From: an uncultured Alphaproteobacteria bacterium
Lineage (GTDB): Bacteria > Bacteroidota > Ignavibacteria > OLB7
Reading direction: 5' to 3'
DNA: 64,000 nucleotides
Assembly: GCA_964462535.1 (NCBI GenBank)
Contig: CAYWXV010000003.1
Location: 65,193-129,192 of the forward strand
Shown piece by piece: positions 7,239 through 60,052 of this stretch. A program made the position numbers and the translations under genes. Position 1 is the stretch's first letter; the number at the start of each line of letters is the position of its first letter. Under the pieces are notes generated by a model, which worked only from the letters and a program-made list of their open reading frames with translations, was not told the origin of the DNA and made no database searches.

Positions 7239-9194
7239 ATGTCCAAAGGCGGAGCTGGCAAGGTATACTTCGTTCTCTACCTCGCCGTTATCCTCGAACT
7301 GCTCATCATCTTCATCGAACGCGATGAGGCTGAAGAGAGCTTGCGGCGTCAGCAGCGACAGGCGTTGGAGATTGTCCAGACGATCCTCGCCCAGCTGACC
7401 ACTGGATCGGGTGCGACCGGAATCACGGCGACCCCGAAAGACAACATCACGATCAACGAGGAGAAGCCGGGGGAAAACGTCCGGAACTACGACGTCACCG
7501 TTGCAGTCGGTGACCCGAAGGTCGTCTATGAAGTCCGTGGACAGCGAATCAAGGGGGATGATGTTGCGAAGCTGGAATACGTTGTCTCGCACATCGGGAA
7601 CTCCGGCCTTCTTGAAGAAGAGCTTGGCGTTGACTCGGTTGACATAGAGAATGGTGAAGTGATTTTCAAGGCGGAGTTAGGCACACTTGTCAATCCGGCG
7701 AATCCGTATCTCCAACCACGGCAGACCTACGGGGCTGCGGTTCCGGCGGAAAACACGGAGACATACTTCCAGTTGAACGAGGTGAAGACCAACGAGCAGC
7801 TGGCGCGTGGTCGGCGTATCAAGGTCTTCAGTGTCAACTTCAAGCCGAACCGAGGTGAAGGCTGGTACCGACTGCGCTTCCAGTCAGAGACAAACAAGAT
7901 CCTGGGTGTGACGGCAGAGCCCAAGTCCACGGACACGGTCCGGATTGGAAATATCAAGCTCGCTGTGGCGCAGCTGAAGCAGGTGCAGAAGGTGCTGAAG
8001 AAGTCGGGAACCAAGGACACGACGACGGCGAACAAGGTGCTGAAGTATATCGAGACTCTTCTCACGCCGGATGCGTACCGAAATCTGCCGGAGAACAAGG
8101 GCTTCACATCGTTCAACGTTCGCGTCGTCCGCCCGCCAGCACAGAAGCCTCAAGAACCATACATCTCGATCGAGGTCCAGGGGGACACGATCAAGTGGCT
8201 GGAGGGTGCTCCTCTCAGTTTCCGCGTGCGCGGTGGACCGTTGGATGGCGGGGTGGTCCAGGTGCCGGGATACGCCCTTTCGAAGGCAAACTTCGCGGGC
8301 GCATCCCCCGACCTCTATGATGCTACCTTAAGCAACCCGCAGTCCACGGATGGGAACGCGACGTCGATCATCGCTCGGGCGATGAACAAGCAGGGGAAGA
8401 AGGCTGAGACCGAGAAGTTCCTTCAGGTGGACAAGATTCAGTACAAGGGGCAGGACAAGGGATTTAGCCGTTGGCGTGCCCTTCGAGCAACAATTGGGTC
8501 CAGATATGACCCGTCCAGTGATTGGGACATGATTGCCATTCGGCCGGAGCACTATCAGACGGTCGTCACGTTCAACGGAAAGACCGTGTTCAATAGACCC
8601 GGCTACAGTTTTAAGTCACTCGGCCCTCAGGAAACAAAGGAACTGACCGTTGCTGAATCCGTGACGAAGATCGTGACAACGGTCTACTGGCGTCCCAACG
8701 GAACGCCGGACCCAAGCCAGTGGGTGCCGCTTGCCTCAACGTCCGCCGGTGACTTGGCGTCCCCGGAAACCGGACCAGCGGGGGGTGGCAGAACACCTCC
8801 GCCAAACCTTGTCGGCGGCGGCGTCAGAATCAGCTACCCCGGTCCTATTCAGGAGGGTGGCTACGAATGCGTCTGGTCGATCAAGAGTCCGGCCGATCTA
8901 ACGTTCGAATGTCCAGAGACCATGAAGTTCTATTCGTTGGTGTCCGGGCGCGAATACGGAGCGCAGGCAGAACTGGTACAGTGCAACGAGTGCGAGGCTC
9001 TCGGGATTCGAGCGACGTTAACGCAGGTTGATGAATTCCTGTGGAAGATCGTCCTTACCGGCAACCTCGAGAAGATCGTTGCCAATCAAAGAGAGCTCAT
9101 AGGCAAACGCCTCGACTTCCCAATCAACCTTAAAGGCAAGGGTGGTGCCGACGGTGTAGGCGGCGTCGCAGTAGTAGTGAAGTTTGGCGGCTAG
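7239..9194 (+). CDS. bitopic membrane protein (N-in single TM, large periplasmic region), function unknown; first gene of envelope locus
   Basis: ATG preceded by a strong SD. Lys-rich N-terminus then hydrophobic VYFVLYLAVILELLIIFI. A helical charged segment, then ~500 aa of beta-rich sequence. C-terminal Cys cluster (ECVWS..FECPE..QCNEC) and a Gly-rich tail. No recognised family. Confidence 0.7.
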   Translation: MSKGGAGKVYFVLYLAVILELLIIFIERDEAEESLRRQQRQALEIVQTILAQLTTGSGATGITATPKDNITINEEKPGENVRNYDVTVAVGDPKVVYEVRGQRIKGDDVAKLEYVVSHIGNSGLLEEELGVDSVDIENGEVIFKAELGTLVNPANPYLQPRQTYGAAVPAENTETYFQLNEVKTNEQLARGRRIKVFSVNFKPNRGEGWYRLRFQSETNKILGVTAEPKSTDTVRIGNIKLAVAQLKQVQKVLKKSGTKDTTTANKVLKYIETLLTPDAYRNLPENKGFTSFNVRVVRPPAQKPQEPYISIEVQGDTIKWLEGAPLSFRVRGGPLDGGVVQVPGYALSKANFAGASPDLYDATLSNPQSTDGNATSIIARAMNKQGKKAETEKFLQVDKIQYKGQDKGFSRWRALRATIGSRYDPSSDWDMIAIRPEHYQTVVTFNGKTVFNRPGYSFKSLGPQETKELTVAESVTKIVTTVYWRPNGTPDPSQWVPLASTSAGDLASPETGPAGGGRTPPPNLVGGGVRISYPGPIQEGGYECVWSIKSPADLTFECPETMKFYSLVSGREYGAQAELVQCNECEALGIRATLTQVDEFLWKIVLTGNLEKIVANQRELIGKRLDFPINLKGKGGADGVGGVAVVVKFGG

Positions 9195-9568
9195 CCCGAG
9201 CACGGGCTTGATTGGCACGCACCGAAGTCAGAAGAGACGGCCGCGACGGTCCACGGATCGTCGCGGCAACGTCGGTTCGATAGGGGGCCGAGAGGAAATC
9301 ATCAGCGCGCATTTTCTGAGCGCCATTTGGCATTCGCCGGAAGGCGTCGGGCGACGAATTCAAAAGGTGGCGCGAACACGGGCAGCCCCCCTGTTGTTTG
9401 GGTAGTAGGTTCCGCAGTCATAGCGGAATGACATCGATAAATCGCTGACCGATTCGGCGAAAGATCCGTTTGACCGATACCTGCCTAGCGCAGTGCGTAC
9501 GTCCGGTCGTCCCGGCGGCGCCATGGAGACGAGGATATCGTGAACGTTTTCATAAACCTGGAAAGCAC

Positions 9569-11488
9569 ATGAGCATGCCCACCCGCTGGTCGCTTCCGAG
9601 CGTCGTCACCCTCATGACGGTCGCTCTGCTGATCACGCTCCCTTCAATGGCGGCAGCCCAGAACGTTGATTCTGTGAGACTGAATCGCAAGCTGAAGAAT
9701 CTTCTAGTCTCACAGGACAATATCACTGGCCTCAGGGGCCTTCGGTTCGCGAACGTCAGCATCTTCAAGCTCAATGCTGAGTTGACGGAGCGCCTCCGCC
9801 GATTCCTGAGCAAGGATGATGCGAGTGACAGCGCGCAAGTCTGTGCCACAGCCTCTACGTGGCTCGACGACGAAAAGTCCTGCCAGGAGATCTTCACGGC
9901 GGTCAGCGGCGCGGTGGGACCGCTCGACCCTCGGAGGTTTGGGGACCAGATTCGGCAGACGCTCGCAATACGTCTTGGACTGACCGATAAGGACGATATC
10001 GACGTCAACGAGTTCAACTCTGTGATTGCCACGTACCAATCGCTTAAGAACCGCGCTGCCGCCCGCCCGAATTCGTTCTACCTCGTCACGTCCCGCGATT
10101 CGAAGAATCCCCGCTTGATTGGCCTCTTGGGCTTCACAACATCCGGCGGTTCCATGACGCTTTCCGGCCAGCAGTTTGTATGGGTTGGGAACGATCTGTT
10201 CACGTGGCTTGGATCGAACCAGGACTACAACGGCATGTACGCCGACATGCGTGACGCAATCGTTAACGAGAATCGCGACGTCCTCCAAAATGTGACCTAC
10301 GCAATTCGCGATATCGATGATGTCCGATTTGTCACGGGGACGAAGGCGCATCCGACGATGATCGACGAGAATACATACGACTGGGTGTTGACCGGAATAA
10401 GCGACGGCCGACCGCTTCGCAAGAAGGCGACCTCCGATTCCGGAGCCAGCAACGGTGGATCGAACCCGTTTGGTGGTGGGAGCTTCCAAATGGCCGGAGT
10501 GAACACGTCGGGGAGTCCATTCACGAACGCTGAGGTTCCTGGGACGGGGGAGTACCCGTATGAACTGGCTATTGGTTCCGATGTCCTGGCGTCATTCCGC
10601 GCATATGAGCTGACCAACGACAATCAGCCACATCCCAAGTGGGGCTTTGAGGTTCGGAACAACTTTGACGAAATCAACTACCCGTCGATATGGGGCGGCC
10701 GCATGACCGTAAGTGCGGTGCTCGAGAACATCAAGATCGGAGCCATCCTCCCCTCGTTCCGCTTTGGTGAGACGATTGGCGAGAGCGGCATCGGGAGCAA
10801 TCCGCAGAACATCGTGGGTGGATATGGTGCGGCGATGTCGGGGGACTTCGCGTTCCCCCTCATGGACAACTCGGGCCTGTTCACGTTCTACACGTCATAC
10901 ACCTTCAGCGAATCAAGTACCGACAAGATGCTCGCGCAGAAGGACGTGTTCCATATCAACCCTGACTCCACGCTCTCGGCAGCCTTCAATGGGGAGACAG
11001 GTGAGACGGGGTACCTGATGCGCTACGCCGCTCTTGGGTATTATTCGTTTGGGTTCTACGCCGATAAGGACGCCCAACACATGTTCCGCATCAAGGTCGG
11101 CGGTGGGGCATATGGCGTCGATACATACAAGCGCCAGATTGACATCTCGGATACGCTTGCATTTATCGAGGCCCTCAACACCGAGACGTCCGAGGGACAG
11201 CCAGATACGTTGCGCACGTACTACAAGTCCTCCAACTCGGTTGAGTCTCGTGGTGGTGTCGCCGCGCGGATCGAATACATGCGTGGTGGTACGAAGTATC
11301 CGTTTGGTGCTGCGATCCAGTACTTCGATGGCTCGCTCCTGAGCAACGTCTGGTTGCAGTTCGCGGTTGGAGAGCAGTTTGATCTGAAGCTTGAAGGGAA
11401 GTTCTTCACGCCGATTTTCCGCGAGCCGCGTCTGTGGGAGTCCGAGAGTCTGGTCGTTCCCTCGCTGACTGTCAAGTACCATTTCTAG
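9569..11488 (+). CDS. outer-membrane beta-barrel-like protein, function unknown
   Basis: Signal peptide MSMPTRWSLPSVVTLMTVALLITLPSMAAAQ (ATG 9569; the track start at 9470 is an upstream extension). Alternating hydrophobic strands in the C-terminal third. Terminal ...LTVKYHF is a classic OMP beta-signal ending in Phe. Confidence 0.65.
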   Translation: MSMPTRWSLPSVVTLMTVALLITLPSMAAAQNVDSVRLNRKLKNLLVSQDNITGLRGLRFANVSIFKLNAELTERLRRFLSKDDASDSAQVCATASTWLDDEKSCQEIFTAVSGAVGPLDPRRFGDQIRQTLAIRLGLTDKDDIDVNEFNSVIATYQSLKNRAAARPNSFYLVTSRDSKNPRLIGLLGFTTSGGSMTLSGQQFVWVGNDLFTWLGSNQDYNGMYADMRDAIVNENRDVLQNVTYAIRDIDDVRFVTGTKAHPTMIDENTYDWVLTGISDGRPLRKKATSDSGASNGGSNPFGGGSFQMAGVNTSGSPFTNAEVPGTGEYPYELAIGSDVLASFRAYELTNDNQPHPKWGFEVRNNFDEINYPSIWGGRMTVSAVLENIKIGAILPSFRFGETIGESGIGSNPQNIVGGYGAAMSGDFAFPLMDNSGLFTFYTSYTFSESSTDKMLAQKDVFHINPDSTLSAAFNGETGETGYLMRYAALGYYSFGFYADKDAQHMFRIKVGGGAYGVDTYKRQIDISDTLAFIEALNTETSEGQPDTLRTYYKSSNSVESRGGVAARIEYMRGGTKYPFGAAIQYFDGSLLSNVWLQFAVGEQFDLKLEGKFFTPIFREPRLWESESLVVPSLTVKYHF

Positions 11489-11555
11489 TCGTCAGACCAA
11501 GAACGGCACCTGAGCAATTCGTCGCTGCAAACACCTTAACATCAATAGACTGACA

Positions 11556-12962
11556 ATGAGCATGCGCACGTTCCCGTCGCTGATGATCGCCCTGATGGCT
11601 GCACTTCTGGCCGGTTCCGTCACGAGGGCTCAGGGACAACCGCCGACTCGCAACGATCTTCTGCAGAACATCCGTGATGTCGAGACCCTGGATCCGGAGG
11701 TTGAGCAGTACCTCCCCAGGTGGAAGGTCCTCGAGGCGGATCTCAAAATCAAGCTTGCGCAGATCTTCCAACTTGATGGCAAGGAGGTCTCCGCGTCGGA
11801 CACGTTCGTCGTTACGGCGACACTCCCAAAGAATGGTGCGCAGGATCTCTTGGTGGTGCGCGTTAACAATGCCGCGATGACCTATCCAGCATTCAACGGG
11901 ACCGGGACGATTCGGGATAACCTGGGATCACGGCTCTATCAGGAAATCCTTGCCCGCAACTACGCCTACCAGACGATCCCTCCGGCAACGCCGATAACAC
12001 AGACTGAGCCCGAGCGCACACCAAGTGTTCTTTACCCCACGAACTCCCGGCAGTTCATTGCGATCAGCGCGTTCCGCCAGGCGGTGCAGATCGGTACGAC
12101 TGGTGCCCGCATCGAACATTGGATTGGCACCGACGAAATTGGATACCACTTCTGGTCCAGCGGGCAGGGAAAGGTGTTCGTTAATTACCCGATCATCCGA
12201 CTCAACAGCCCGAAGCTCCGGGCGAAGGGGGTGCCCGATATCCTCACGTTCAACCTTGGTGCGGCCTATCGTCTGAAATTCGGTGAGATCGGGAACGATG
12301 GCCTTTCAGGTGTCATAACTCCGCGGAAATTGAACGGCTCACTGGGAGGAAAAGCGCTTGCGCATGTTGACTACCGGTTGCCGGAGGTGAACAACTTCGG
12401 GTTCTTCTTCCACGCCGAGATTCCGTTCTCACGTATTGACACTGCAACGCTGCCATGGACGGGCGTCACGATGCTCAAGGAATTGAAGGCTCGTCCCTCG
12501 ATTCTTGATTCGTTCAACTACAACGGGTATTTCCTCCGCAACGTGGCGCAGGGAGCGATCTTCTACGAGGACTGGTTGAATGACTACGAGCATTTCTTCC
12601 GCATCAGCCTTGGTCTATCGTACCAGGACGTGCTCCGCATGTCGGACAAGAGCAAACTGAAAGATCCCGTCGCCCTTGCGCTCGAGCCGGAGTTCCTCTA
12701 TCATCCAACCGAGGCGAAGGACTGGATCTACGCGAAGTTTGAATACCTGAATCAGTCCGGCTTCCCGTTTGGTGCGTCTGCGCAGCTGTCGAACCAGAAT
12801 CTCTTCCTCCAGGTCTTCGTTCCAATTCTCCCGAATTGGCTGTTCATTGAAGGGAAGTATTCGACACCGTTGTTGCGCGACAATCCACAGCCGTGGGAAC
12901 ATAGCTCGTTCTTCATGTTGTCGCCGATTCTGCGATTCGATCTCGGCAACGTGGCGAAGTGA
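11556..12962 (+). CDS. outer-membrane protein, paralogous to the upstream gene in its C-terminal region, function unknown
   Basis: Signal peptide MSMRTFPSLMIALMAALLAGSVTRAQG. Its C-terminus (LFIEGKYSTPLLRDNPQPWEHSSFFMLSPILRFDL) aligns with the C-terminus of the 9569 gene (LKLEGKFFTPIFREPRLWESESLVVPSLTVKYHF). Confidence 0.65.
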   Translation: MSMRTFPSLMIALMAALLAGSVTRAQGQPPTRNDLLQNIRDVETLDPEVEQYLPRWKVLEADLKIKLAQIFQLDGKEVSASDTFVVTATLPKNGAQDLLVVRVNNAAMTYPAFNGTGTIRDNLGSRLYQEILARNYAYQTIPPATPITQTEPERTPSVLYPTNSRQFIAISAFRQAVQIGTTGARIEHWIGTDEIGYHFWSSGQGKVFVNYPIIRLNSPKLRAKGVPDILTFNLGAAYRLKFGEIGNDGLSGVITPRKLNGSLGGKALAHVDYRLPEVNNFGFFFHAEIPFSRIDTATLPWTGVTMLKELKARPSILDSFNYNGYFLRNVAQGAIFYEDWLNDYEHFFRISLGLSYQDVLRMSDKSKLKDPVALALEPEFLYHPTEAKDWIYAKFEYLNQSGFPFGASAQLSNQNLFLQVFVPILPNWLFIEGKYSTPLLRDNPQPWEHSSFFMLSPILRFDLGNVAK

Positions 12963-13254: not shown

Positions 13255-14613
13255 ATGAATTCCGTCTCCTCCCCGATAGTCGCCACGCGCCTCGTCCGGT
13301 GGCTATGTGCCTGTGTCGTTGCGACGATTGCCTGCACCAGCACACCCGCGAGCGCGCAGATCACGCGCCGCCCCAACGACCCGCCGGGTCGCGAGGTGAC
13401 GCGTGTAGCTCTGCGTGATTCAGCCCTTCGTATCGCCGTCCGCAATATTGACATCACCCGGTTCCCAATGATCAACGTCGTCTTCGACGTTATGACCACC
13501 GACAATCGCTCCGTTTTTGGACTCGATCGCGCCGACGTTCAGATCACGGAAAATGGACGCGAGCAACAAGTGATCAGCCTGTCCATGATCACGCGCGCAA
13601 ATCGTGTTCCTGTCGATTTTGTCTTCGTTATCGATCAGACCGCGAGCATGGTCGACAAGATCCAGAGTGTCAAGCAGAACATCGATGAGTTTACAACGCG
13701 CCTGGCGTCGAAGGGGATCGACTACAGACTTGGGCTTATTGTCTTCGACGACAACGTTGCGCAACGACGTTGGCTGACCGATGACATTTCCGAATTCAAG
13801 TCCTGGATAGACGGAATTACTGCAGGTGGGGGCGGCGACGAGAAGGAGAATGCTCTGGAGGCTCTCCGCGCCGTGACGGGCATGAACTTCAGATCGAGTG
13901 CAAACCGGTGCATCGTCCTCGTCACGGACGCACCGTACCACCAGTATGGGGAGCACGGGTGGGGGCGAACGATCTACACGGCAGAAACCATTGCGGCGCT
14001 TCTCCTGAAGCGGGAGATCCGCACGTTCTGTATTGTGAACCCAAACGTCCAAGGGTACGCCACGGTAGCGCGCACGACCGGGGGCCAGGTCTTCGACATC
14101 AGTCAGCCCTTCGCGGAGATCCTCAACAACTTCGCCCTCACGATGACATCGCTCTACACGGCGACGTATCAATCCGATATCGAGAGGATCCCGGATTCAA
14201 TCTGGGTCGAGGTTCGGATTCCGGGAGTCCCAAAGGCGGCCAGAAAGGGTTTCGCCGTTTTGGAGGTTGGACGAAAGCTCGTAGTCGATAACATCCACTT
14301 TGCGACCAATCGCTCCACAATAGATGTAACATCGACACGAGAACTCGACTACCTGATAAGATTGATGCGTGCGCGACCGACGCTGAAGCTGAAGATCGAA
14401 GGACACACCGACGACGTCGGGGATCACGAGCTGAACATTCGATTGTCCCAGCAGCGTGCGGAGGCGGTGAAGCGATACATGCAGAAAGGGGGTATCTCTC
14501 CGGATCGACTGTTCACTATCGGATACGGCGAGATGCGCCCGACAGCCTCCAATGACACGGATGAGGGGAAGCGTCTAAACCGCAGAACCGAGTTCATCAT
14601 CCTCTCGCGCTAG
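13255..14613 (+). CDS. secreted von Willebrand factor A domain protein fused to a C-terminal OmpA/MotB-like peptidoglycan-binding domain
   Basis: Signal peptide LVRWLCACVVATIACTSTPASAQ. vWA MIDAS-like VFVIDQTASM ... LIVFDD ... GGGDEKENALEAL. C-terminal NIHFATNRSTI...GHTDDVGDHELNIRLSQQRAEAV...NRRTEF is a canonical OmpA_C pattern. Confidence 0.8.
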   Translation: MNSVSSPIVATRLVRWLCACVVATIACTSTPASAQITRRPNDPPGREVTRVALRDSALRIAVRNIDITRFPMINVVFDVMTTDNRSVFGLDRADVQITENGREQQVISLSMITRANRVPVDFVFVIDQTASMVDKIQSVKQNIDEFTTRLASKGIDYRLGLIVFDDNVAQRRWLTDDISEFKSWIDGITAGGGGDEKENALEALRAVTGMNFRSSANRCIVLVTDAPYHQYGEHGWGRTIYTAETIAALLLKREIRTFCIVNPNVQGYATVARTTGGQVFDISQPFAEILNNFALTMTSLYTATYQSDIERIPDSIWVEVRIPGVPKAARKGFAVLEVGRKLVVDNIHFATNRSTIDVTSTRELDYLIRLMRARPTLKLKIEGHTDDVGDHELNIRLSQQRAEAVKRYMQKGGISPDRLFTIGYGEMRPTASNDTDEGKRLNRRTEFIILSR

Positions 14614-21003: not shown

Positions 21004-22953
21004 ATGATTCATCGTCCCGCCCCACGCTTCTATTGCTTGCGTCCCATTCTCCTGCTGATGGTCCTGTCGGCGGGGGGTCTTCGTGCGCAACAGGGGGGCC
21101 CGCAGGAATCGCTACCGCTGCTCGGTCCAACCGTGCGATATGAGTTCGGCGTTCCAATCGCGGTTGACCGTCTCCCGGGACTGGTCAATCGATTCAATGT
21201 TCCTGGAACGGGCGAGTCTCGCAACCACACAATTGGCAGCGGTGCAACGCTCCTCTTTCCGCAACTCATTTCCCGTCGACTCGGGCTTCGCCTCCACGCG
21301 CTTCTAGGCGTTTCTTTCGGGCTCTTCGAGTCGGATCCGTACCTCGTTGATCTGTTGGACACCGCGAGCGGCGTCCTCCTCTCCACCGCCAACCGCTTCA
21401 ACGTATCGACGACGTTGGGAAGCGCTCAATTGGGAGCCGGGGTTGATCTCCGGCTGGCTGACGGACCCGCCTTCTTCGGAATCGGCCTCTGGGGGGAGAC
21501 CAGGTTCGCGTTGGAGATTGTGGAGCGTGAGGAGCTTCTCTTTCCGGACACTGCTCGTTTCCCGTCGGGTGAACGGACCCGCGTATTGACTGCTGGAGAG
21601 AGCCTGGGGGCGCAGGCTTTGAGAGGAGGTGGAGAGTTTCGTCTTGGTGCGCGTTTCGGTATCAATCCCGACCTGGCCATCGAGTCTTCGGTCCACACTC
21701 GCGTAGACGTCGCCTCGCTTGTGGATGGACTCGCGGCGCGAGCCTGGTCGGTGGGTGCCCAGTTGTCGTTCCTCATGCCGTTTGGGGTGCGAGGGGGGGA
21801 CGACGACCTCCTTGCGCGCCGCATCCCAGGCCTGCAGCTCGACTTGTACGCCATCGACGGCGACGCGGTCGCACAGATCGGCACCCTTCAGCCGGTGCGG
21901 GTCGTTCATCGCCGTGTTGTCCCTCTTATTCCCATCGTCTACTTCGGAACAGGTTCAACGACGATCCCCGATCGGTATCGATTGATCGACCGGGCCGCGG
22001 CGGACTCGTTCACAATGGCCGATCTCTCTGGTCTGGATCCACTTCAGCTCTCACGACGCTCTATTGACGTCATCGCCTGGAGAATGGGATTGGCGGATGA
22101 CGCGAAGTTGACGTTGGTGTCGTCTTCCGGCCGGGGAGACGAAATCGCACGGCGCCGCGCCGAGGTCCTCCGGAGCTACTTGATAGATGTCTGGGGAATC
22201 GCCTCTTCGCGTATCGCTGTTCGCACTGAGCGGATGCGTAGCGGGCCGGGGGAGGGCGTGGAGTTTCGCTGCTCAAATCAGTCGCTGGTGGCCGATCCTA
22301 TTGTCGTTGAGTGGGTGGAGCAGGCCTACCGTGCTCCAATCGTTGGAATGGACCGGATAATACCGCGCGAAGGGGGCCTTCGGCGATGGGAGATAGAATT
22401 GACACGCATGGGATCCAGAATAGCCTATTTCGAGGGCGAAGGCTTTTCGGATGGGCGCGAACTCTCAGGGCAACTTCTTCTCGATTCAATCCGTGGTGCC
22501 GACGAAGAGGAACCGATCGTTGGACATCTCTTTGTGGAGAACATGGCGGGCGTTCGCGATACTGCTCACGACATCCTCCCGCTGCGCACCCTTGACCTTG
22601 CGGTCGACTCGCTCGGAGGAACGATCGTCGACGGCGTGCTCGGCGTGGTTGCCGACGATCGGGGAAAGCTCACGTCTCCGACGACGGGCGCGGCGGCAGA
22701 ATTGATCGACGGGGTCGTTGACGGGTGCGAGGTACACGTCTGGATGGTGCGTTCGGATGCGGCTTCCGCTAGCGGAAGGGGAGGAGTTGACCTGCTGACA
22801 ACACTTCTCGGTCGGAATATTCAGCCGTCGAGTCTCCGATTTACGTCCCCTCTCCGCGATCGTTGGACGCCGGACAACAGCCCGGAATCCACGATCCTGT
22901 CGTCCGGTGTGTCATTTCGAATTTCCTCATCGAACACACGAGCTGCCCCATGA
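21004..22953 (+). CDS. OmpA-family protein: signal peptide, N-terminal beta-rich region, internal OmpA_C-like domain, ~250-aa C-terminal extension
   Basis: Signal peptide ILLLMVLSAGGLRAQQ. Internal PIVYFGTGSTTI...GRGDEIARRRAEVLRSYL...SSRIAV matches the OmpA_C pattern. Confidence 0.65.
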   Translation: MIHRPAPRFYCLRPILLLMVLSAGGLRAQQGGPQESLPLLGPTVRYEFGVPIAVDRLPGLVNRFNVPGTGESRNHTIGSGATLLFPQLISRRLGLRLHALLGVSFGLFESDPYLVDLLDTASGVLLSTANRFNVSTTLGSAQLGAGVDLRLADGPAFFGIGLWGETRFALEIVEREELLFPDTARFPSGERTRVLTAGESLGAQALRGGGEFRLGARFGINPDLAIESSVHTRVDVASLVDGLAARAWSVGAQLSFLMPFGVRGGDDDLLARRIPGLQLDLYAIDGDAVAQIGTLQPVRVVHRRVVPLIPIVYFGTGSTTIPDRYRLIDRAAADSFTMADLSGLDPLQLSRRSIDVIAWRMGLADDAKLTLVSSSGRGDEIARRRAEVLRSYLIDVWGIASSRIAVRTERMRSGPGEGVEFRCSNQSLVADPIVVEWVEQAYRAPIVGMDRIIPREGGLRRWEIELTRMGSRIAYFEGEGFSDGRELSGQLLLDSIRGADEEEPIVGHLFVENMAGVRDTAHDILPLRTLDLAVDSLGGTIVDGVLGVVADDRGKLTSPTTGAAAELIDGVVDGCEVHVWMVRSDAASASGRGGVDLLTTLLGRNIQPSSLRFTSPLRDRWTPDNSPESTILSSGVSFRISSSNTRAAP

Positions 22954-23959: not shown

Positions 23960-26173
23960 TCAGTGGACGACGACAACAGACGTAGTGCGAACGTGCGATC
24001 CTGCGTGCATTCGCAGCCGATACACCCCGCTTGGAAGATCTTGAATATCAAGCGCCAGATTATGCTCACCCGCATCGAGATTCTCATCTAGTATGAGGTT
24101 GACAAGGCGTCCCGCTTCGTCGAGAATCTCAATTACGATGTGTTCGGGATGGGTCAGGGTACACGTGACGTGACCGAGTGTTGCAGTCGGGGTCGGACGA
24201 ACGGAGCCGAGCGAGAACTCCATATCATCGTGAGATGGGACTCCCGCCGCCGGAACAACGATTGCCGACCATACAGAAGTGTCGCGACGGCATTCTGCGT
24301 TGGACCAGAATTTGGCGGTCGATCTGAACACCCCTTGACTTGTGGGTGTGAATGTCACGAACAACGTGAAGCATTCCTGCGGGGCCAGGCGCACTACGTC
24401 GCGAAGACTATCAATTGTCGACTGCGGAACAGTGAAGTTTGTCACCAGCCATTCAATCACGGAGCCCCCGTTGGGATTGTTGAACGTAACGGTGTCGCCA
24501 CCTGGGATGCCTGCGTTGCAGATATCGAGTGGAAGCGTACGTGGACCGTCAACACCCAAACGGAATACACCGAAATTCAAGTCATCCACGTAAACGCATG
24601 GTTGCGTAGCGACGCCAGTCACCACTAACGACGCCACATCGCAGTCGGTCACTACCTTGAGCGTATCGAAGTAGCGCTCGGCGGGTGGGCGTGAACAAAA
24701 ACCGATGTGGACGATCACACTTTCCCCACTGTCCAGAACAACGGGTGTAGGCCCGGGCTCAATACTCTTGATTGTAAATCCCTGATCTCCCCGCATCAGC
24801 ATTGCGCTGGTTACATTGATTGGGCGGGAGCTATTGTTCGTGAAGGTCACGAGGGTATCAACGCAGGAGTCTTTCCTTACCCTCCCGGCATCGAGAATCC
24901 CGGTCACGTTTGGCGAGAGGACTGGGGGGATGTACCCGAACGGAAGCCGCCACTCCGCCCCCGTGCGATCCATGATGACGAGTTGCGCCGAGGCATTCAT
25001 CAGTGGATCGACGGGCTGGCACCGAACGATAGCGAACGTCGCTCCGACCAGGTCCGCTGGCTTCGTTGGATTGACAAAGACCAGCTTTGCGTTATTGATA
25101 GTCGACGTATCCAGCGAAATGCTGAGTAGTCCGGCAGGGTTGGTCGATACGTCCTTGACAGTATAGGTCGTTGACTCACAAACGCTCGTGTCGGTGATGA
25201 TCAACGTGTCGGCAATTTGAAGCACGGAACCCAGTATTCCCGTGATCCGATGCGAGTCCCACGACGGGGTATGAACGAATGTGTTGCCGTGCTGTTCGCT
25301 CGGCGCGCGTTGTTCGACTGCAAGATTCCGAATCCCGTTTCCTGCGAGATCGCTCGTCTCTCGGTCATATCCCATTGATGTTCGCGCGACGCCACATACC
25401 ACCCCGATAAGTCTGTCCATCCTTCTTCGCGTCCCGGTCAGATCGGGTTGTCTCGCCGAGAATCTTTCACAGGTGTCGACGTACCTCTGCGGCAGATAGC
25501 ATTGTCCCTTCTGACGTCTAGCCGCCAGAGCAGGCAAGTCCCACCACTGAGTCGTCTGTAACTGATGGATTGTGACGTTGGTGTTGTCGTATGAGGCAGC
25601 CATCAGGAGGTCGGATGGGCCCATCTTCCGGACACCAAACGATTCTGTCGGGGAGCCGAGACTAACGTTTCTCGGTGTTTCACCAGGCTGGGCAGGTACG
25701 ATATAGTCCTTCCCCAACGTGGCGGCGGGAATCTCCGCAACGAACTCGCCCCCTGACTCTGTCGCATAGTAGCGATTGCCGATCGCTGGGTAGGTGGCAC
25801 TGATGTCAAACGTAGCGTTGTTGATTCTAGCGATATCTGTCACAATCGGACGAGCGGCTGTGTTGTCCCGCGAGGTCAGCCCCACTATTTCTGAGCCTTC
25901 TGTTCGCGGTCGTACACGATTGATGCAGCCGGCCGGGCTAGTAATGTTGCCTTCATAATCAACCGCGGCGGAGGTCCGCAGTTGAACCCTACTCTTCATC
26001 AGAGTGCGAAACCTGCTTTCACATACGCTAGACGTCGTATCCGGAAAACCCACAACGAGATGTGTTCCGGCAATAATCGCGTCCAGTGCTTGTGCGTTCA
26101 AGCCATAACCCCAACACCCCATCAGTATGGACGCGAAAAGGGTTCTCATTGCGTAAAGCGTCGTCAGTTTCAT
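23960..26173 (-). CDS. secreted protein with C-terminal T9SS type-A sorting domain (T9SS cargo), paralogue A
   Basis: ATG at 26173 gives MKLTTLYAMRTLFASILMGCWGYGLNAQA. The track start at 26404 is an upstream extension. C-terminal ~75 aa (...ILDEAGRLVNLILDENLDAGEHNLALDIQDLPSGVYRLRMHAG...VVVVH) fit the T9SS CTD pattern. The N-terminal region is similar to the two downstream genes. Confidence 0.75.
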   Translation of the reverse strand: MKLTTLYAMRTLFASILMGCWGYGLNAQALDAIIAGTHLVVGFPDTTSSVCESRFRTLMKSRVQLRTSAAVDYEGNITSPAGCINRVRPRTEGSEIVGLTSRDNTAARPIVTDIARINNATFDISATYPAIGNRYYATESGGEFVAEIPAATLGKDYIVPAQPGETPRNVSLGSPTESFGVRKMGPSDLLMAASYDNTNVTIHQLQTTQWWDLPALAARRQKGQCYLPQRYVDTCERFSARQPDLTGTRRRMDRLIGVVCGVARTSMGYDRETSDLAGNGIRNLAVEQRAPSEQHGNTFVHTPSWDSHRITGILGSVLQIADTLIITDTSVCESTTYTVKDVSTNPAGLLSISLDTSTINNAKLVFVNPTKPADLVGATFAIVRCQPVDPLMNASAQLVIMDRTGAEWRLPFGYIPPVLSPNVTGILDAGRVRKDSCVDTLVTFTNNSSRPINVTSAMLMRGDQGFTIKSIEPGPTPVVLDSGESVIVHIGFCSRPPAERYFDTLKVVTDCDVASLVVTGVATQPCVYVDDLNFGVFRLGVDGPRTLPLDICNAGIPGGDTVTFNNPNGGSVIEWLVTNFTVPQSTIDSLRDVVRLAPQECFTLFVTFTPTSQGVFRSTAKFWSNAECRRDTSVWSAIVVPAAGVPSHDDMEFSLGSVRPTPTATLGHVTCTLTHPEHIVIEILDEAGRLVNLILDENLDAGEHNLALDIQDLPSGVYRLRMHAGSHVRTTSVVVVH

Positions 26174-26431
26174 GATTGATCTCCCAACATTCGTGGATGC
26201 ACATCGAATGCAAATACTCGAAGCCAGTGGATAGTTATGTGATATGCCGCAAAATGGTCCGGGAGCGAGGGACGCATCAATCCCATGCCATCGCGTGGAT
26301 GCAGTGACGACGACATCGTAGGTCTTGCGCGATGACCTCGTAACGCCAATGATGTCGCGCGTCAGCGTGCAGGGGCCGAGTATTAGTAGCGCCGAAGCAA
26401 TCAATAATCGGCGAACGCGCGGACCATTACA

Positions 26432-28948
26432 CTATTCGTGCACCACGACCAGGGTGTTGGTTGCCTGGAACAATCCAGATTGCAGCCTCACTAAATAGAG
26501 TCCCTTCGGAACGGTGGAGACGTCAATTCTGACTTCGTGCTCCCCCTCGCCCACGACAGTGTCCACCATCGTCCGAACTACGTTCCCACGAATATCGAAC
26601 ATCCGCATGGTGGTGTGAGCGCGTCGCGGAATTGTGTAGTTGATGCTCACCGTCGATCTCGATGGCGTTGGAGCAACTGGCCCGAGACGCCCGCCATAGG
26701 AGTTAGCGATATCGGCCGCGGATACCCTGGACGATCTACCTGTCACGTATCGGGTCGGGTTACCGCAATGGTCGCCGCCAATAACGAGCGTGTCCCATCC
26801 CTCCCAATCAGCGCTCGGAGGGACAACCCGAACGATTATGTTCGTTGAGTCGTGAGGTGGAATTATGAGGGGCATGTTCGACGGGAATAGCAGCCGAAAG
26901 CCCTTTGACGAATTCGTTAGGTGGGCGGACCACACTCGCAGTGAATCGTCGTTGTCGTTGAACAATGGAATCTCAAAATCCCGGGAGCTACCATACGGAA
27001 CCACCCCAAAGTCTATGTGCATGGCACTTGGCAGCCTGGCATAGTTCGATCCCCGGTACAACGGTATTGCCGTCTTATGACCGGTGCGATCCTCAATTAT
27101 TACCGTTCCAGTTGCGGGGCGATCCGGATCGACGAGGGCGAACAGGAACGACATTCCCACGCGACCCTCTGCATCGACTGTTTCCTCGCGAAGCGTTGTA
27201 ATGGCGGCGTTGGAGCTTCCGTCCGCTAGAACGAGCGATCGAATTCCTGAGGGGCTGGAGTTGACAAACGTGACGTCGATGTCAATTCCTCTGCATTCAA
27301 ACGTCTGACGAATAGCGATCGAGTCTGGAGGTTGCAGTGCGAGGCGACGCGGGGCCAGAGCGAGTCCGTATGACCGACCAAGCATCTCTTCGTACTCGAC
27401 TGTTCCGAGCAGTTCGGTGCCTTCCTTCCGACGCGTCGTGAAGCCCGGTCGATACAGCTCGAATCCTGCCTCCAGGCCGTATTGCGTAGCGTAGAACCTG
27501 GCGCCACCTCGTCCCTCGATCCACATTGTCCGACCGACCGGAACTGGGAACGAACCCCAAACGAGGTCGGTTCCAGGAACTGAGCCCCTATTGAAGTCGA
27601 CGAGCTGTCCAGTCTCATCAAATATCGTTCTCGCCGAAACCGAGTCGGCGACGATATTCACGTAGTGTCCTACGCCCGTCAAAGACGTAGGGGCGTAGAT
27701 CGGGGCAAATGAGGTCCATTGCTCTCGTGGGACCATTTCCACAGAGAACCCACCATACGTCCTGTACGATTCGCCGTGATACAATGTGCCCGTCGTCCTC
27801 CCCAGTTCCTCTATGACGGGGGCGGGATAGACAAATGCCTGTGCAGGCCGATTCGATCGATAGAGGTGCGGGCGCGCGATGCGCCACCGTGACGTATCGG
27901 TCCTTCCTGTTGGAACTACGCGTCGCACTGCGCTCGCTCCGCTGTCGAGCACATCAAGCGAAGTGGGGGTGTAACCCGACGGGACGAACAGAATTCGCTC
28001 CCAAGCTCTCTTCCCTACACTGGAATCACCCGGGTTACCGATTTGAGCAAGCGTATCAGAAACTGGGAGATGGACGAATGATGTGCCATGCATATCCACG
28101 GGTGTGAGCCATTCGAACGCGCTGTTCTTCAGCGTATTCCCTGCGTTTGCGGATACCTCGCGTTCCAGACCGAACGCGCCTCGAGGATTCCCGGCTATAA
28201 CACCAATTGGCCCATCGGATATTATCTCGGTTAGGGTAGGATCGCCGTTGTCCCAGTAGGTGGTATTGCTCGCGGTGTCCAGCACTGCCCTCAGCGTAAT
28301 CGCCTGCCCCGGGAGCATGGTTATGGGCATTTCCGGTTGGTCTACGAGGCTGACACCCGGGCGGGGGAGAACAGTGACATGTGTGGGCGTTGGCGTTCCG
28401 CACACGATAGTTAGCTGCGCATTCGCTGCCAACGCACGGGCATGGAAGATTGTGTCTTCCACGGGGTACTCGATATTCCGGACAACCTCGCCAGGCAAGG
28501 ACGCCACCACGTACTTCCTGCCGAACGCTCCTGCCGCGAGGGGCGTGAACGCCTCTGTGCCGAATCGCGTGGTGTAGAAACAGGTAACCAGAAACGGACG
28601 CGTACCTCGAATCGATGCAACAGTAAACTGAGGGGTGGAAGTGGACGTGACAATTTCAATATCAAGTTCCCGCGCGACACGTGGTTGCAATCGTATGTGG
28701 CGAGTGGTTGAGGGACCTGTGACCGATACCTCTTGTTCGACGTCCGAAAACACCACGATCGTTGCCGTCTCCGTTCTGCGGACGGAAAACCGAGGGTCTG
28801 TGTCGTTTCCGACTGTGTCTGGAAATGCGACGAAATAGAGCGTCCCTGACGAACCTGGATCAATCGTCTGGGCCTCTGTTCCCGAAAGCGAAAAAAGAGT
28901 GAGGACGAGCGCAGCAGTGAAAGGGTGATGAAGTCGGTAACGGATCAT
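26432..28948 (-). CDS. secreted protein with C-terminal T9SS type-A sorting domain, paralogue B
   Basis: ATG at 28948 gives MIRYRLHHPFTAALVLTLFSLSGTEAQ. CTD ...MFDIRGNVVRTMVDTVVGEGEHEVRIDVSTVPKGLYLVRLQSG...LVVVHE. Shares GTLYFVAFPDT and TSRWR.ARPHLY..N.PAQAF blocks with paralogue C. Confidence 0.75.
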   Translation of the reverse strand: MIRYRLHHPFTAALVLTLFSLSGTEAQTIDPGSSGTLYFVAFPDTVGNDTDPRFSVRRTETATIVVFSDVEQEVSVTGPSTTRHIRLQPRVARELDIEIVTSTSTPQFTVASIRGTRPFLVTCFYTTRFGTEAFTPLAAGAFGRKYVVASLPGEVVRNIEYPVEDTIFHARALAANAQLTIVCGTPTPTHVTVLPRPGVSLVDQPEMPITMLPGQAITLRAVLDTASNTTYWDNGDPTLTEIISDGPIGVIAGNPRGAFGLEREVSANAGNTLKNSAFEWLTPVDMHGTSFVHLPVSDTLAQIGNPGDSSVGKRAWERILFVPSGYTPTSLDVLDSGASAVRRVVPTGRTDTSRWRIARPHLYRSNRPAQAFVYPAPVIEELGRTTGTLYHGESYRTYGGFSVEMVPREQWTSFAPIYAPTSLTGVGHYVNIVADSVSARTIFDETGQLVDFNRGSVPGTDLVWGSFPVPVGRTMWIEGRGGARFYATQYGLEAGFELYRPGFTTRRKEGTELLGTVEYEEMLGRSYGLALAPRRLALQPPDSIAIRQTFECRGIDIDVTFVNSSPSGIRSLVLADGSSNAAITTLREETVDAEGRVGMSFLFALVDPDRPATGTVIIEDRTGHKTAIPLYRGSNYARLPSAMHIDFGVVPYGSSRDFEIPLFNDNDDSLRVWSAHLTNSSKGFRLLFPSNMPLIIPPHDSTNIIVRVVPPSADWEGWDTLVIGGDHCGNPTRYVTGRSSRVSAADIANSYGGRLGPVAPTPSRSTVSINYTIPRRAHTTMRMFDIRGNVVRTMVDTVVGEGEHEVRIDVSTVPKGLYLVRLQSGLFQATNTLVVVHE

Positions 28949-29362
28949 GTGTTGAACGGGGGAATGGGTAGCAGTTGCCGTTGCTGCGCCAGGTGTGAGG
29001 AACGCAACCGATTGCGCAAACATCGGGCCAAAGCGAGCTGCATGGTATTTATTCGATTAATTGCACCGAGTGAATGTGTCGTGTGGGGGTTCTGCACGGT
29101 TGGGTAGTGAATGTCACGATTATTTCCCGCCGTTTGACGAAGCGCGGACCTGTGTCATATCCACGACGTCGACTCCCACGTTTGGAGAACCGATGTCATT
29201 CGAAATCTCGCCTCTGAACACAATGACAGTGGCCAGGGCGAGAAGGATCGGTTGACACCGTGTCAACTGTTTGAACGATGGATGTTTGTACCTAGGTCAG
29301 GTGATGTTATACGTGACGCCCGCCGTTTGCCCCCACGCAAGTTCGCCCCGTCCACTCCCATG

Positions 29363-55226: not shown

Positions 55227-55290
55227 GGCGCGAAAATACGACGGTCTCACTTGCCCCCCGCGGACCGGGGACGTAATATTGGCCCCGTCC

Positions 55291-58414: not shown

Positions 58415-60052
58415 CTACATTCTGCTCTGCTCGACGAGGCTGATAAACTCCGTTCGGTATCCCTCGATATCTGTGCCGATGGCTGATCGAGCGAGATTGA
58501 GTACGTCATCGAATGACGCATTCCCCTTATGCTTCGAGTTTCTCAGTAGCAGTCCCCATTCCGCAACGGCAGCTGCAAACCGGAGATTCTCGGAGGCTTC
58601 ACCAATCTCACGCCGAGACGCGACGGCCGGACCCGTCACGAGCCTGCTCGTTTCTTCGTTCGGCAACTTGTAGCGCAACTTGACCGACAGGATATCGCCG
58701 TTCCCGAATTGGGTGGAAGTGAAATCGTTGTCGCGCGTGGCAGCCTGTTGGCGATCTGTTCCTTCTACGATGAGGTCGGGTCGCCCCCCCGTAGAAGCCC
58801 CTGCCGGCACGATCTCGTACAACGCGGTGACGTTGTGTCCCGCACCAAGCTCACCAGCATCCTTTGCGTCGTTCTCAAAGTCTTCGTTTGCCAGTCGCCT
58901 GTTCTCGTAACCGATCAACCGATATGCAAGAACCGTACTCGGATTGAATTCAACCTGGATCTTTACATCCTTTGCGATGGTGAAGAGAGTGGAGGTCAAT
59001 TCCGTTTCAAAGACCTTTCGCGCCTCCCGCTCCGTGTCCAGATACGCATAGTGCCCGTTCCCCTTGTCGGCGAGCATCTCGAGTGTTGCGTCCTGGAGGT
59101 TGTCCCTCCCGACACCCAGAACCGTGAGGAAGATTCCCTCCTTCCTCTTCGCCTCAATAAGTCGTTCCAGCCCACCGATGTCAGAAATCCCGACGTTGAA
59201 ATCCCCATCCGTCGCCAGGATGACACGGTTATTTCCGTTCTCGATGAAGGCCGACCGCGCCGCATTGTAGGCGAGTTGAATGCCCTCTCCACCTGCAGTA
59301 CTACCTCCCGCTTCAAGATTGTCGATCGCGTTCAGGATCGTCTGCCGATCCGTCCCCTTCGTTGGAGGAAGAACAAGCCCTGCGGCGCCGGCGTACACGA
59401 CGAGCGACACGCGGTCTTCATCGCGGAGTTTTGCGACCAGATATCGAAACGACTTCTTCACCAGATCAAGCTTGTCGGGGCTCTGCATCGATCCACTCAC
59501 ATCGATCAGGAAGACAAGATTGCTCGGTGGCACGCTCTCCATGCGTGCCGAGCGCCCCTGCAACCCAATCAACACGAGCTGATGGTCGCTGTTCCATGGA
59601 CACTGCGCGACGTCTGTGGTGATAGAAAACGGATGTGTCGTAGAGGGCTGGGGATAGTCGTAGTGGAAGTAGTTGATCAACTCCTCGATGCGCACTGCGT
59701 CGGCTGGAGGTGGTGACCCGGCAGTAATGAAGCGGCGAACATTGCTGTATGAGGCCGCATCGACATCGATCGAGAATGTGGAGCGAGGCATCGAGCGCGC
59801 GCTCATGAATGCGTTCTCGACAATCGGTGCATAGGTCTCTCTCGTTGCTCCGTTCTCCATAGGCGTTTCGTCGGCGAGCGAGATGTCAGTTGCTGATGAA
59901 TCGGTCATGAGGCTACGCGTGGACGACGGCGCCGACTCCTGCGCCCCCATCATAGCACTCTTGTGGATCTCGTGCGTGCCGCACGACGCCAGCCCTAACG
60001 CCACCGTCAATCCGAACGAAAAGAGAATAGCAGTTCCGCCTCTGCGTTTCAT
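58415..60052 (-). CDS. von Willebrand factor A domain lipoprotein (YfbK-like)
   Basis: Lipoprotein signal LGLASCG. VFLIDVSGSM MIDAS motif. ...ATDGDFNVG... matches YfbK-type vWA proteins. 545 aa. Confidence 0.8.
   Translation of the reverse strand: MKRRGGTAILFSFGLTVALGLASCGTHEIHKSAMMGAQESAPSSTRSLMTDSSATDISLADETPMENGATRETYAPIVENAFMSARSMPRSTFSIDVDAASYSNVRRFITAGSPPPADAVRIEELINYFHYDYPQPSTTHPFSITTDVAQCPWNSDHQLVLIGLQGRSARMESVPPSNLVFLIDVSGSMQSPDKLDLVKKSFRYLVAKLRDEDRVSLVVYAGAAGLVLPPTKGTDRQTILNAIDNLEAGGSTAGGEGIQLAYNAARSAFIENGNNRVILATDGDFNVGISDIGGLERLIEAKRKEGIFLTVLGVGRDNLQDATLEMLADKGNGHYAYLDTEREARKVFETELTSTLFTIAKDVKIQVEFNPSTVLAYRLIGYENRRLANEDFENDAKDAGELGAGHNVTALYEIVPAGASTGGRPDLIVEGTDRQQAATRDNDFTSTQFGNGDILSVKLRYKLPNEETSRLVTGPAVASRREIGEASENLRFAAAVAEWGLLLRNSKHKGNASFDDVLNLARSAIGTDIEGYRTEFISLVEQSRM

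Follow-up and report, generated by a model that had tools for sequence, protein, structure and literature searches.

A strictly tandem pair of predicted outer-membrane barrel proteins within a conserved envelope gene cassette of Kapabacteria, Ignavibacteria and their relatives

Our study reports on four genes, here called X, A, B and D, which lie in this order on the forward strand of a 64,000-nucleotide stretch of DNA (the window) from an uncultured bacterium placed by GTDB among the Ignavibacteria. Gene A (9569-11488) encodes a protein of 639 aa; its ATG at 9569 is favoured as the start over an upstream TTG at 9470 because a database protein, P0069, is 100% identical to it at the same length of 639 aa. 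The ORF coordinates place a spacer of 67 bp (11489..11555) between A and gene B (11556-12962), which encodes 468 aa. In most loci the gene immediately preceding A is X, in the window the gene for a predicted single-pass inner-membrane protein of 651 aa (7239..9194), and most of the related loci have B immediately followed by D, encoding a 452-aa exported protein with VWA and OmpA-type domains (13255..14613).

Proteins A and B share a common layout. Each begins with a Sec signal peptide, read by eye from the sequence and flanked by conserved residues at the cleavage site: aa 1-30 in A (9569..9658), with cleavage between ...SMAAA and Q and with A30 invariant in the family alignment, and aa 1-25 in B (11556..11630), with cleavage between ...VTRA and QG and with A27 and Q28 nearly invariant. 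In the AlphaFold2 models this is followed by an alpha/beta domain, presumed to be periplasmic, which occupies aa ~31-320 of A together with a disordered linker (9659..10528) and aa ~26-165 of B (11631..12050). The remainder is a beta domain, delineated by DSSP strand assignments from the models; that of A has 16-18 strands (aa ~321-639; 10529..11488, including the invariant YHF end and the stop codon), and that of B has about 16 strands (aa ~166-463; 12051..12944), the last of which is FFMLSPILRFDL. Beyond this strand B carries a tail of five residues, GNVAK, and the stop codon (12945..12962).

The earlier note had described a beta-signal with a terminal Phe in A, and in B the same strand followed by a tail of 5 aa; both of the C-terminal strings it quoted are found verbatim in the ORFs. 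Protein A ends in ...LTVKYHF, with YHF invariant within the A family, and a terminal F, usually as ...NF, is seen in nearly all A-like relatives. The homologous final strand of B ends in ...ILRFDL, at L463, ahead of GNVAK. This tail shows no conservation in the B family; Ignavibacteria-type B proteins end at the equivalent point in ...RITI or ...RLTL, and the terminal residue of other B-type proteins is I, L, F or Y. The terminus of A fits a C-terminal aromatic beta-signal; that of B, with L463 and its tail, does not.

The same note had read A and B as tandem paralogues from an alignment of their C-terminal ~45 aa, which proves true, with exact coordinates, but understates a similarity that spans the ~300-aa beta domain. 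BLASTP aligns residues 397-637 of A with 240-461 of B at 26% identity (E 5e-12), and comparison of the A-family and B-family profiles gives a probability of 96.5% (E 8e-10). The hhalign run that the note had proposed as a check, here made with the beta-domain sub-alignments, extends far outside the short C-terminal stretch, to 268 columns at 97.5% probability and E 8e-12. Motifs common to the two beta domains include DEI.Y, PFG, EGK(Y/F).TP and PWE, and the upstream and downstream members of the pair form separate clades in a tree. Homology of the N-terminal domains was considered on account of a strand-helix pattern that looks alike by eye, but hhalign detects no similarity between them (E 0.14) and we regard it as undemonstrated. 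On these sequence comparisons, A and B are ancient duplicates, paralogous across their whole C-terminal beta domains.

Structural modelling suggests that both proteins are most likely barrel-shaped outer-membrane pores. The two AlphaFold2 models have pLDDT values of 80 and 82, and each shows an N-terminal alpha/beta domain followed by 16-18 antiparallel beta strands; local confidence is high within the N-terminal domains (pLDDT ~86-91 at aa 60-240 of A and 86-95 at aa 50-140 of B) and falls below 50 at aa 291-314 of A. For both models, the top 50 Foldseek matches in the PDB consist almost entirely of outer-membrane barrels, with probabilities of up to 0.98, among them OmpU, AlgE, porins and FhaC for protein B, although TM-scores do not exceed 0.29 and the rmsd is high. 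The modelling that the earlier note had called for thus supports a barrel-like class of fold, with 16-18 strands and outer-membrane barrels as its neighbours, at this low level of superposition.

The same figures invite the reading that A and B are soluble, beta-rich periplasmic or secreted proteins whose barrel matches are a 3Di artefact of a long antiparallel meander. The low TM-scores and high rmsd would agree with this, as would the pTM values of just 0.55-0.62 and a strand amphipathicity that is moderate in the beta domain of A and short of the textbook pattern. However, a low pTM is expected of proteins that each consist of two domains joined by a flexible linker, the matches of both independent models are nearly all outer-membrane barrels, and the only clearly soluble ones are two alginate lyases in the list for protein B. 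The beta domain of A is also 15% aromatic, lacks Cys and has alternating hydrophobic faces, and A-like proteins end in an aromatic residue family-wide. We consider a soluble fold very improbable.

The two proteins belong to a family without described relatives. Neither A nor B of the window has a Pfam match at E<=1 or any match in NCBIfam, and 101 family members (53 + 48) yield only scattered, non-recurrent Pfam matches at E>0.02, with no significant match to the porin, alginate-export, Omp85/POTRA, OmpA_membrane, PorP/SprF or PorV/FadL profiles. Sequence-profile searches of the PDB with both families found none, and our search of the literature on the Kapabacteria outer membrane and on Ignavibacteria T9SS and gliding found no paper on the family. 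Among 1.84 billion representative proteins there are only 243 relatives; those looked up (20 proteins, 10 clusters) are unnamed, and 10 sampled distant relatives contain no Pfam domain except for one PDZ insert. In both protein and genome scans the family is confined to Kapabacteria, Ignavibacteria and their relatives (deep Bacteroidota), and none of the related loci from the genome scan comes from a cultured strain. Soils, sediments and bioreactors commonly harbour Kapabacteria and Ignavibacteria, yet the picture of their cell envelope is drawn largely from distant Bacteroidota.

The gene order X-A-B-D on one strand is found in 35 of the 60 related loci, most of the others being interrupted by contig ends, and it is retained even between lineages that share no more than ~25-30% identity in their proteins. 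The tandem barrel pair itself is present in all 60 of these loci and in 21 more wherever the contig permits, even in the distant 'BB' lineages, and a single copy was never seen in the 81 loci. In relatives A and B lie 4-100 bp apart or overlap (60 loci), which suggests that they are co-transcribed. The 374-bp spacer between X and A (9195..9568) differs in length among relatives, and no conserved element was identified in it. Regulatory RNAs or small ORFs in the spacers were considered and set aside: the cassette region has no Rfam match, its spacers contain no consensus promoter or terminator (terminator-like hairpins occur only inside genes), and they hold only short ORFs, of at most 76 aa in the cassette as a whole and 73 aa between X and A.

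This conservation bears on the simplest functional reading of the pair, in which A and B are independent diffusion channels, such as substrate-specific porins, that are adjacent through tandem duplication alone, form no A-B complex and are functionally unconnected with X and D. General and specific porins (OmpU, MOMP, chitoporin and the R. blastica porin) do head the structural matches, and each protein is modelled as a full-size barrel on its own. Against this, the gene order persists among proteins so diverged, and the pair never occurs in single copy; moreover, both proteins possess a large and well-folded domain in the periplasm, which is missing from ordinary porins, and the porin family profiles are unmatched. 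We regard this reading as improbable, and propose instead that A and B probably form a hetero-oligomer.

Read by eye, protein X starts with a short cytoplasmic segment, crosses the membrane once by a helix at about aa 9-26 and continues into a periplasmic region of ~620 aa; it has no match in Pfam, NCBIfam or the PDB. Its N-terminal ~55 aa are invariant in 30 relatives, whose identity elsewhere is ~25%, and the invariant Glu20 lies inside the membrane helix. An ...ILELLII motif raised the possibility of a type IV prepilin-like protein, which was rejected: the -1 position lacks a Gly, and no plausible cleavage site would put the Glu at +5. In distant lineages the tandem pair is kept beside an X-like protein and a further protein, L, a multi-pass membrane protein with a coiled-coil tail and an invariant Glu in its last membrane helix (alignment A5; topology by eye). 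L adjoins the barrel pair wherever flanks are present, in 18 of 21 metagenome loci (L061-81) and also in L007, L008 and L056-60. Kapabacteria-type cassettes have no L gene beside them, and an HMM search of all window ORFs of at least 50 aa, together with a reading of the unannotated ORFs, found no L gene or X paralogue elsewhere in the window. Homology of X to GldM and of L to GldL could not be demonstrated either: neither protein matches these families in Pfam or NCBIfam at E<=10, and hhalign against true GldL and GldM sequences, taken from PDB entries 6ys8, 7saz and 7sau, gives E ~0.4 and probabilities below 1%.

Protein D combines a VWA domain (aa ~116-285; Pfam VWA_4 at 62 bits, over the cut-off) with a C-terminal OmpA-type peptidoglycan-binding domain (aa ~345-450), the latter matching Pfam PF00691 over aa 349-443 with 78.4 bits against a cut-off of 27.2. 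In NCBIfam the OmpA part alone is matched, below the cut-off, and the closest partial matches are the envelope-integrity lipoproteins YiaD, CHU_0125 and Pal. These features suit a passive tether, in which A and B are outer-membrane anchors, D links them to peptidoglycan and X to the inner membrane, and the whole, free of any transport or motor activity, serves envelope spacing and integrity in the manner of OmpA, Pal or Tol-Pal. The peptidoglycan-binding domain of D is bona fide, and Pfam, NCBIfam and L-profile searches find neither an ATPase nor a recognisable stator in the window cassette. Yet the invariant N-terminus of X with its membrane-buried Glu, and likewise the dedicated L protein of sister lineages with its own, are hallmarks of ion-coupled machines, and two diverged barrels of ~16 strands with conserved polar loop motifs exceed the needs of an anchor. 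A purely passive role for the cassette appears unlikely.

A further reading connects the cassette to type IX secretion, with A, B and D forming an alternative attachment complex, or one associated with the translocon, for CTD-bearing cargo and driven by the ordinary GldLM/PorLM of the genome. A Por_Secre_tail protein at 26432-29023 of the window indicates that the genome uses T9SS, a system of the Bacteroidota sensu lato, and in L001/2, L005, L006 and L007 the cassette has large CTD proteins no more than 10 kb away; these proteins are, however, common in such genomes, so that their closeness may be due to chance. The OmpA domain of D matches the PorE model locally, but against the full model (NF052230, with TPR, beta-propeller, CarboxypepD_reg and OmpA_C) D scores 80 bits where the cut-off is 600, and only the OmpA part aligns. 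In Pfam and NCBIfam there is no match to PorP/SprF, PorV, PorQ, PorT, full-length PorE or GldK/L/M/N, and our scans, which are no proof of absence, did not detect the A/B family in other T9SS-bearing Bacteroidota. An accessory role in type IX secretion is, on this evidence, quite improbable.

We therefore favour, at about an even chance, a reading in which X, A, B and D make up an uncharacterised complex that spans the envelope, has A and B as its outer-membrane part and is powered through an L-type partner. After export by the Sec pathway, A and B would be joined in the outer membrane as a hetero-oligomer, each with its alpha/beta domain in the periplasm and its barrel of ~16 strands. Protein D may tether them to peptidoglycan through its OmpA-type domain, with the VWA domain offering a site for protein binding, while X, anchored by its invariant helix, could reach across the periplasm and touch A and B from below. 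From the occurrence of L, with its buried Glu and coiled-coil tail, beside an X-like protein in distant relatives, we infer that X and an L-type partner encoded elsewhere in the genome may pass inner-membrane energy to the barrels. So energised, the pair might serve export or surface movement, as do the GldLM/PorLM motor of T9SS and the Agl-Glt machine of Myxococcus.

More tentatively, X, A, B, D and the L-type partner could constitute an unrecognised ion-driven machine of Kapabacteria, Ignavibacteria and deep Bacteroidota, in which an L/X unit with buried glutamates, analogous to GldLM, powers the heteromeric barrel pair for protein export or surface motility; we hold this possible but doubtful. 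If true, this would be a new system for secretion or motility, and it might also introduce a new family of stator-like motors. An energised complex would also join the few systems by which energy from the inner membrane reaches the outer one (Ton, Tol, T9SS and Agl-Glt), and would provide a natural experiment on the evolution of paired paralogous barrels. Even a mere tether would give names to four 'hypothetical proteins' and new families worth curating. In either case, the cassette presents a strict tandem pair, with no relative in Pfam, NCBIfam or among solved structures, inside a conserved set of 4-5 genes that spans all layers of the envelope.

An overall design in which a periplasmic domain precedes a barrel of ~16-18 strands is shared with Omp85/TpsB proteins such as FhaC and TamA, and with AlgE, BcsC and PelB; AlgE, FhaC, TamA, BcsC and PelBC are among the Foldseek matches of A and B. 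TM-scores stay at the low level given above, the Omp85, POTRA, alginate-export and porin Pfam models are unmatched, the order of secondary-structure elements in the N-terminal domains differs from the beta-alpha-alpha-beta-beta of POTRA, and the cassette has no synthase or partner-secreted genes.

The GldL/PorL-GldM/PorM motor of the T9SS core, found in the same broad lineage and likewise associated with an OmpA-type peptidoglycan binder, pairs a protein of two membrane helices and a cytoplasmic domain with one that has a single helix and a long domain in the periplasm; protonatable residues are buried in this motor (bioRxiv 10.1101/2022.01.28.478170). X resembles GldM in its short cytoplasmic tail, single membrane helix and long periplasmic region, and L of sister lineages resembles GldL in its helix hairpin, the buried Glu of its last helix and its coiled-coil tail; we keep this likeness purely as an architectural analogy. 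Sequence homology to the T9SS core, in which the motor has outer-membrane partners (PorP barrel, PorK/N ring) and the peptidoglycan-binding PorE, is not detectable, no GldK/N-like genes are present, L is absent from the window, and the resemblance of D to PorE is confined to a generic OmpA domain. The outer-membrane components here are a different, paired family of barrels.

Two paralogous barrels that are encoded side by side and always kept together recall GltA/GltB (and NfsA/NfsB) of Myxococcus xanthus, which with GltC and CglB, a VWA adhesin, make up the outer-membrane module of the Agl-Glt gliding machine; the barrels of GltA and GltB have about eight strands. These two proteins are adjacently encoded paralogues of ~260 aa, each containing a domain that is homologous to the outer-membrane barrel of OmpA, and they stabilise each other and bind directly within a motor-driven envelope complex (PMC4488436). 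A and B are unlike them in their length of 639 and 468 aa, their ~16 strands and their large periplasmic domains, and there is no sequence relationship, OmpA_membrane being matched by one of 48 members at E 0.09. The cassette also differs from Agl-Glt in belonging to another phylum and in having no TolQR-type motor. In both, however, a VWA protein accompanies the outer-membrane pair: in Agl-Glt the outer-membrane module includes a VWA-domain protein (PMC9946355), and the cassette has D. The two VWA proteins differ in that D carries a peptidoglycan-binding domain and CglB is an adhesin, a lipoprotein of the cell surface.

The two genes analyzed here lie on the plus strand with a gap of 67 bp, A (639 aa) at 9569-11488 and B (468 aa) at 11556-12962; the start of A was placed at the ATG at 9569 and not at the upstream TTG at 9470 on the basis of an identical 639-aa database protein. 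The earlier note described them as paralogues sharing a C-terminal module of about 45 residues, and the two terminal strings it quoted are exact in the sequence, A ending in ...LTVKYHF and B in ...ILRFDL followed by the tail GNVAK. The paralogy is borne out and was understated: the similarity extends well past the last ~45 residues, with BLASTP aligning residues 397-637 of A to 240-461 of B (26% identity, E 5e-12). Profiles of the B family (53 sequences) and the A family (48 sequences) align at a probability of 96.5% (E 8e-10), and the beta domains alone align in hhalign over 268 columns (97.5%, E 8e-12). Both families share the motifs DEI.Y, PFG, (E)GK(Y/F).TP and PWE, along with a number of invariant glycines and prolines; the N-terminal domains show no detectable relatedness by hhalign (E 0.14).

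Both proteins carry typical Sec signal peptides, ending ...AAA in A and ...TRA in B and each followed by Q, with no lipobox cysteine in either. AlphaFold2 models computed from the family alignments reach a reasonable level of confidence, with a mean pLDDT of 80 for B and 82 for A. They display an N-terminal alpha/beta domain, which spans ~140 aa in B and, not counting a disordered linker, ~260 aa in A, followed by an all-beta, antiparallel domain of about 16 strands in B and 16-18 in A. The beta domains are 15% aromatic and free of cysteine, and their strands have a single hydrophobic face. The top 50 Foldseek matches in the PDB for both models are almost exclusively outer-membrane barrels (OmpU, MOMP, Rhodobacter-type porins, chitoporin, AlgE, OmpG, FadL, FhaC, TamA, BcsC and PelBC) at probabilities of up to 0.98 (<=0.98), although the TM-scores are only 0.13-0.29 and the pTM of the models is 0.55-0.62. 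A and B are paralogues, both exported and both with a barrel-like beta domain, and the outer-membrane barrel class proposed for them is well supported as a prediction, with an approximate strand number and a presumed closure.

The terminal ...YHF is invariant in the A family, and the final residue is Phe in almost all A-like proteins across the superfamily. The strand of B homologous to the last strand of A ends in Leu, after which the tail is not conserved; Ignavibacteria-type B proteins terminate exactly at this strand end, the last residue being Ile or Leu; in more distant B proteins it is Phe or Tyr. The conserved aromatic terminus of the A clade, the composition of the beta domains and match lists made up nearly entirely of outer-membrane barrels make it very unlikely that A and B are soluble, non-barrel proteins, a reading that would account for the low TM-scores. 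In one A-like relative of 694 aa (P0302) a PDZ domain interrupts the N-terminal region, which is consistent with a periplasmic location of this region and with a role in partner binding.

Neither family has a member that matches a model in Pfam or NCBIfam, even at permissive thresholds, and profile searches with both families across the whole set of PDB sequences found nothing. When a merged A+B profile was run by HMM against the full set of 1.84 billion representative proteins, only 243 relatives were returned (E <= 1e-3). Those sampled (10 clusters, 20 proteins) are unnamed or 'hypothetical protein', and in 10 sampled relatives the only Pfam domain was one PDZ insert. By source label the relatives come from Chlorobiota, Candidatus Kapabacteria/Kapaibacterium, Ignavibacteria(e) and Bacteroidota MAGs, with a few from automatically labelled 'uncultured' bins. 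A scan of one genome per species (185,579 species) gave 52 loci, all in MAGs, the scan being pattern-based and not implying absence elsewhere. The window itself has a G+C content of 57-58%, and its closest relatives are Kapabacteria-type sequences. Several loci with the full gene cassette (L021, L027, L032, L033, L035, L039, L041, L047, L052, L053; L017) belong to bins that carry the label 'uncultured Alphaproteobacteria/Hyphomicrobiales' or 'Armatimonadota'. As B at these loci is ~30-52% identical, the same range as at Kapabacteria- and Ignavibacteria-labelled loci, the taxonomic labels of these bins are probably wrong.

The A and B genes are strictly paired, and are linked to the genes for X, a protein of the inner membrane, and D, a VWA protein that binds peptidoglycan. 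X (7239-9194, 5' of A) begins MSKGGAGKVYFVLYLAVILELLIIFIERDEAEE... and crosses the membrane with one helix, beyond which ~620 residues lie in the periplasm, with no known domain found in Pfam, NCBIfam or the PDB. D (13255-14613, 3' of B) has VWA and OmpA-type peptidoglycan-binding domains, each above the Pfam cut-off. Away from the cassette, and in positions unrelated to it, the window encodes two more proteins with VWA domains, one of BatA_N + VWA type (55213-57369, plus strand) and one of YfbK type (vWF_A + VWA + YfbK_C; 58415-60052, minus strand). HMM scans of every ORF at 60 related loci found X-A-B-D with order and strand kept at 35, the remainder mostly showing the same pattern broken by contig ends or split ORFs. 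Carriers include Kapabacteria, Ignavibacteria-type MAGs (B ~31% identical) and a distant Bacteroidota MAG (L008); a few genomes lack D beside the pair, for example CP065014.1 (L002) and L034-37. The A-B spacing in relatives is 4-100 bp, or the genes overlap, which suggests co-translation. Of the interpretation in the earlier note, the paralogy and the barrel class are supported, and the complex of A with B that it suggested is plausible. Were A and B independent porins, the top structural matches would agree, but their universal pairing, large periplasmic domains and conserved cassette are at odds with such a role, which we regard as distinctly unlikely.

Residues 1 to ~55 of X (window 7239-7400, MSKGGAGKVYFVLYLAVILELLII..ERDEAEE), including E20, midway along the membrane helix, are invariant in 30 proteins otherwise ~25% identical. 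Such extreme conservation points to an N-terminus packed tightly against another, highly conserved membrane protein.

In sister lineages the barrel pair is linked to a protein that spans the membrane several times and has a buried Glu; we term this protein L. Its membrane helices are N-terminal and are followed by a helix hairpin, in which the Glu of LGVEFTLL is invariant, and a coiled-coil tail; it has no match in Pfam, NCBIfam or the PDB. The distant relatives in which L flanks the barrel pair are L007 (9346-11591), L008 (3777-6180), L056-L060 and the metagenome loci L061-L081. A more divergent tandem barrel pair occurs at five genome loci (L007, L056, L057, L059 and L060) and at 18 metagenome loci (L061-78), of which the six of sufficient length carry both barrel genes. 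The order at these loci is the barrel pair followed by L (~230-290 aa), and at the five genome loci an X-like single-pass protein of ~460 aa (MKSGKVSFYFILYVVAIITVFAITVERD...) comes after L. Of the 21 metagenome loci recovered by the L profile, 18 have L next to the barrel pair, and the other three contigs (L062, L068 and L074) are too short to show the neighbor. L008 and L079-81 have the order L-X-A-B(-D), with an X helix, YFVLYLAVIIELLI, identical to that of the window. The 64-kb window has no L gene, nor is there one beside the Kapabacteria/Ignavibacteria-type cassettes. In a neighbor-joining tree of the beta domains, each major lineage has its upstream copies in one clade and its downstream copies in another, so both copies have been kept since before these lineages split. 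A static tether joining the outer membrane, wall and inner membrane would agree with the presence of D, yet it leaves the invariant buried Glu and the dedicated L protein unexplained, and we consider it unlikely.

The window also encodes three tandem large paralogues with IgGFc_binding-type domains (814, 863 and 989 aa; 23960-32332, minus strand), the middle of which (26432-29023) bears the type IX secretion (T9SS) sorting domain Por_Secre_tail, implying that the genome uses this pathway. That the cassette is an accessory module of the T9SS would agree with the lineage and with nearby proteins carrying such C-terminal domains; as the T9SS family profiles are all unmatched, this is highly doubtful. 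At several unrelated loci, genes less than 10 kb from the cassette encode very large surface proteins of the Laminin_G_3/ASH/SdrD type that bear T9SS sorting domains (L002, 1-3259; L006, 22186 onward; L007, 1-1092; L005, 1-3016), a proximity that may be chance or a hint of cargo. A 649-aa protein at 21004-22953 (plus strand), with a signal peptide, no Pfam match and a beta-rich appearance by eye, is possibly another unannotated envelope protein.

The cassette is of more interest than the barrel pair alone: it consists of four envelope proteins, five elsewhere, that are conserved together, with X, A and B from families without annotation; it is confined to a poorly studied lineage, and its features suggest an energised envelope-spanning machine. 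In the model we propose, A and B, probably joined in a hetero-oligomer, would work jointly within the outer membrane, D would anchor the assembly to the wall while its VWA domain binds a partner, and X would extend upward from the inner membrane. An energised, motor-like role is in our view the most likely by analogy, because the L/X pair appears to share the architecture of the T9SS inner-membrane motor GldL/GldM, in which both proteins have protonatable residues in their helices (bioRxiv 10.1101/2022.01.28.478170). Homology was not found on direct comparison with the GldL and GldM sequences of PDB entries 6ys8, 7saz and 7sau (hhalign E ~0.4), and neither L nor X matched a GldL/GldM family in Pfam or NCBIfam; the likeness would be one of working principle and not of membership. 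That the cassette constitutes a new ion-driven secretion or motility system is a possibility we advance tentatively. For the A/B pair the best functional precedent is GltA/GltB of Myxococcus, adjacent paralogous outer-membrane barrels that bind directly and stabilize each other within a motor-driven envelope complex (PMC4488436), which is described as likewise employing a VWA protein (PMC9946355). GltA and GltB are small OmpA-like barrels without sequence relationship to A and B; the A/B cassette would itself be a paired-barrel envelope complex.
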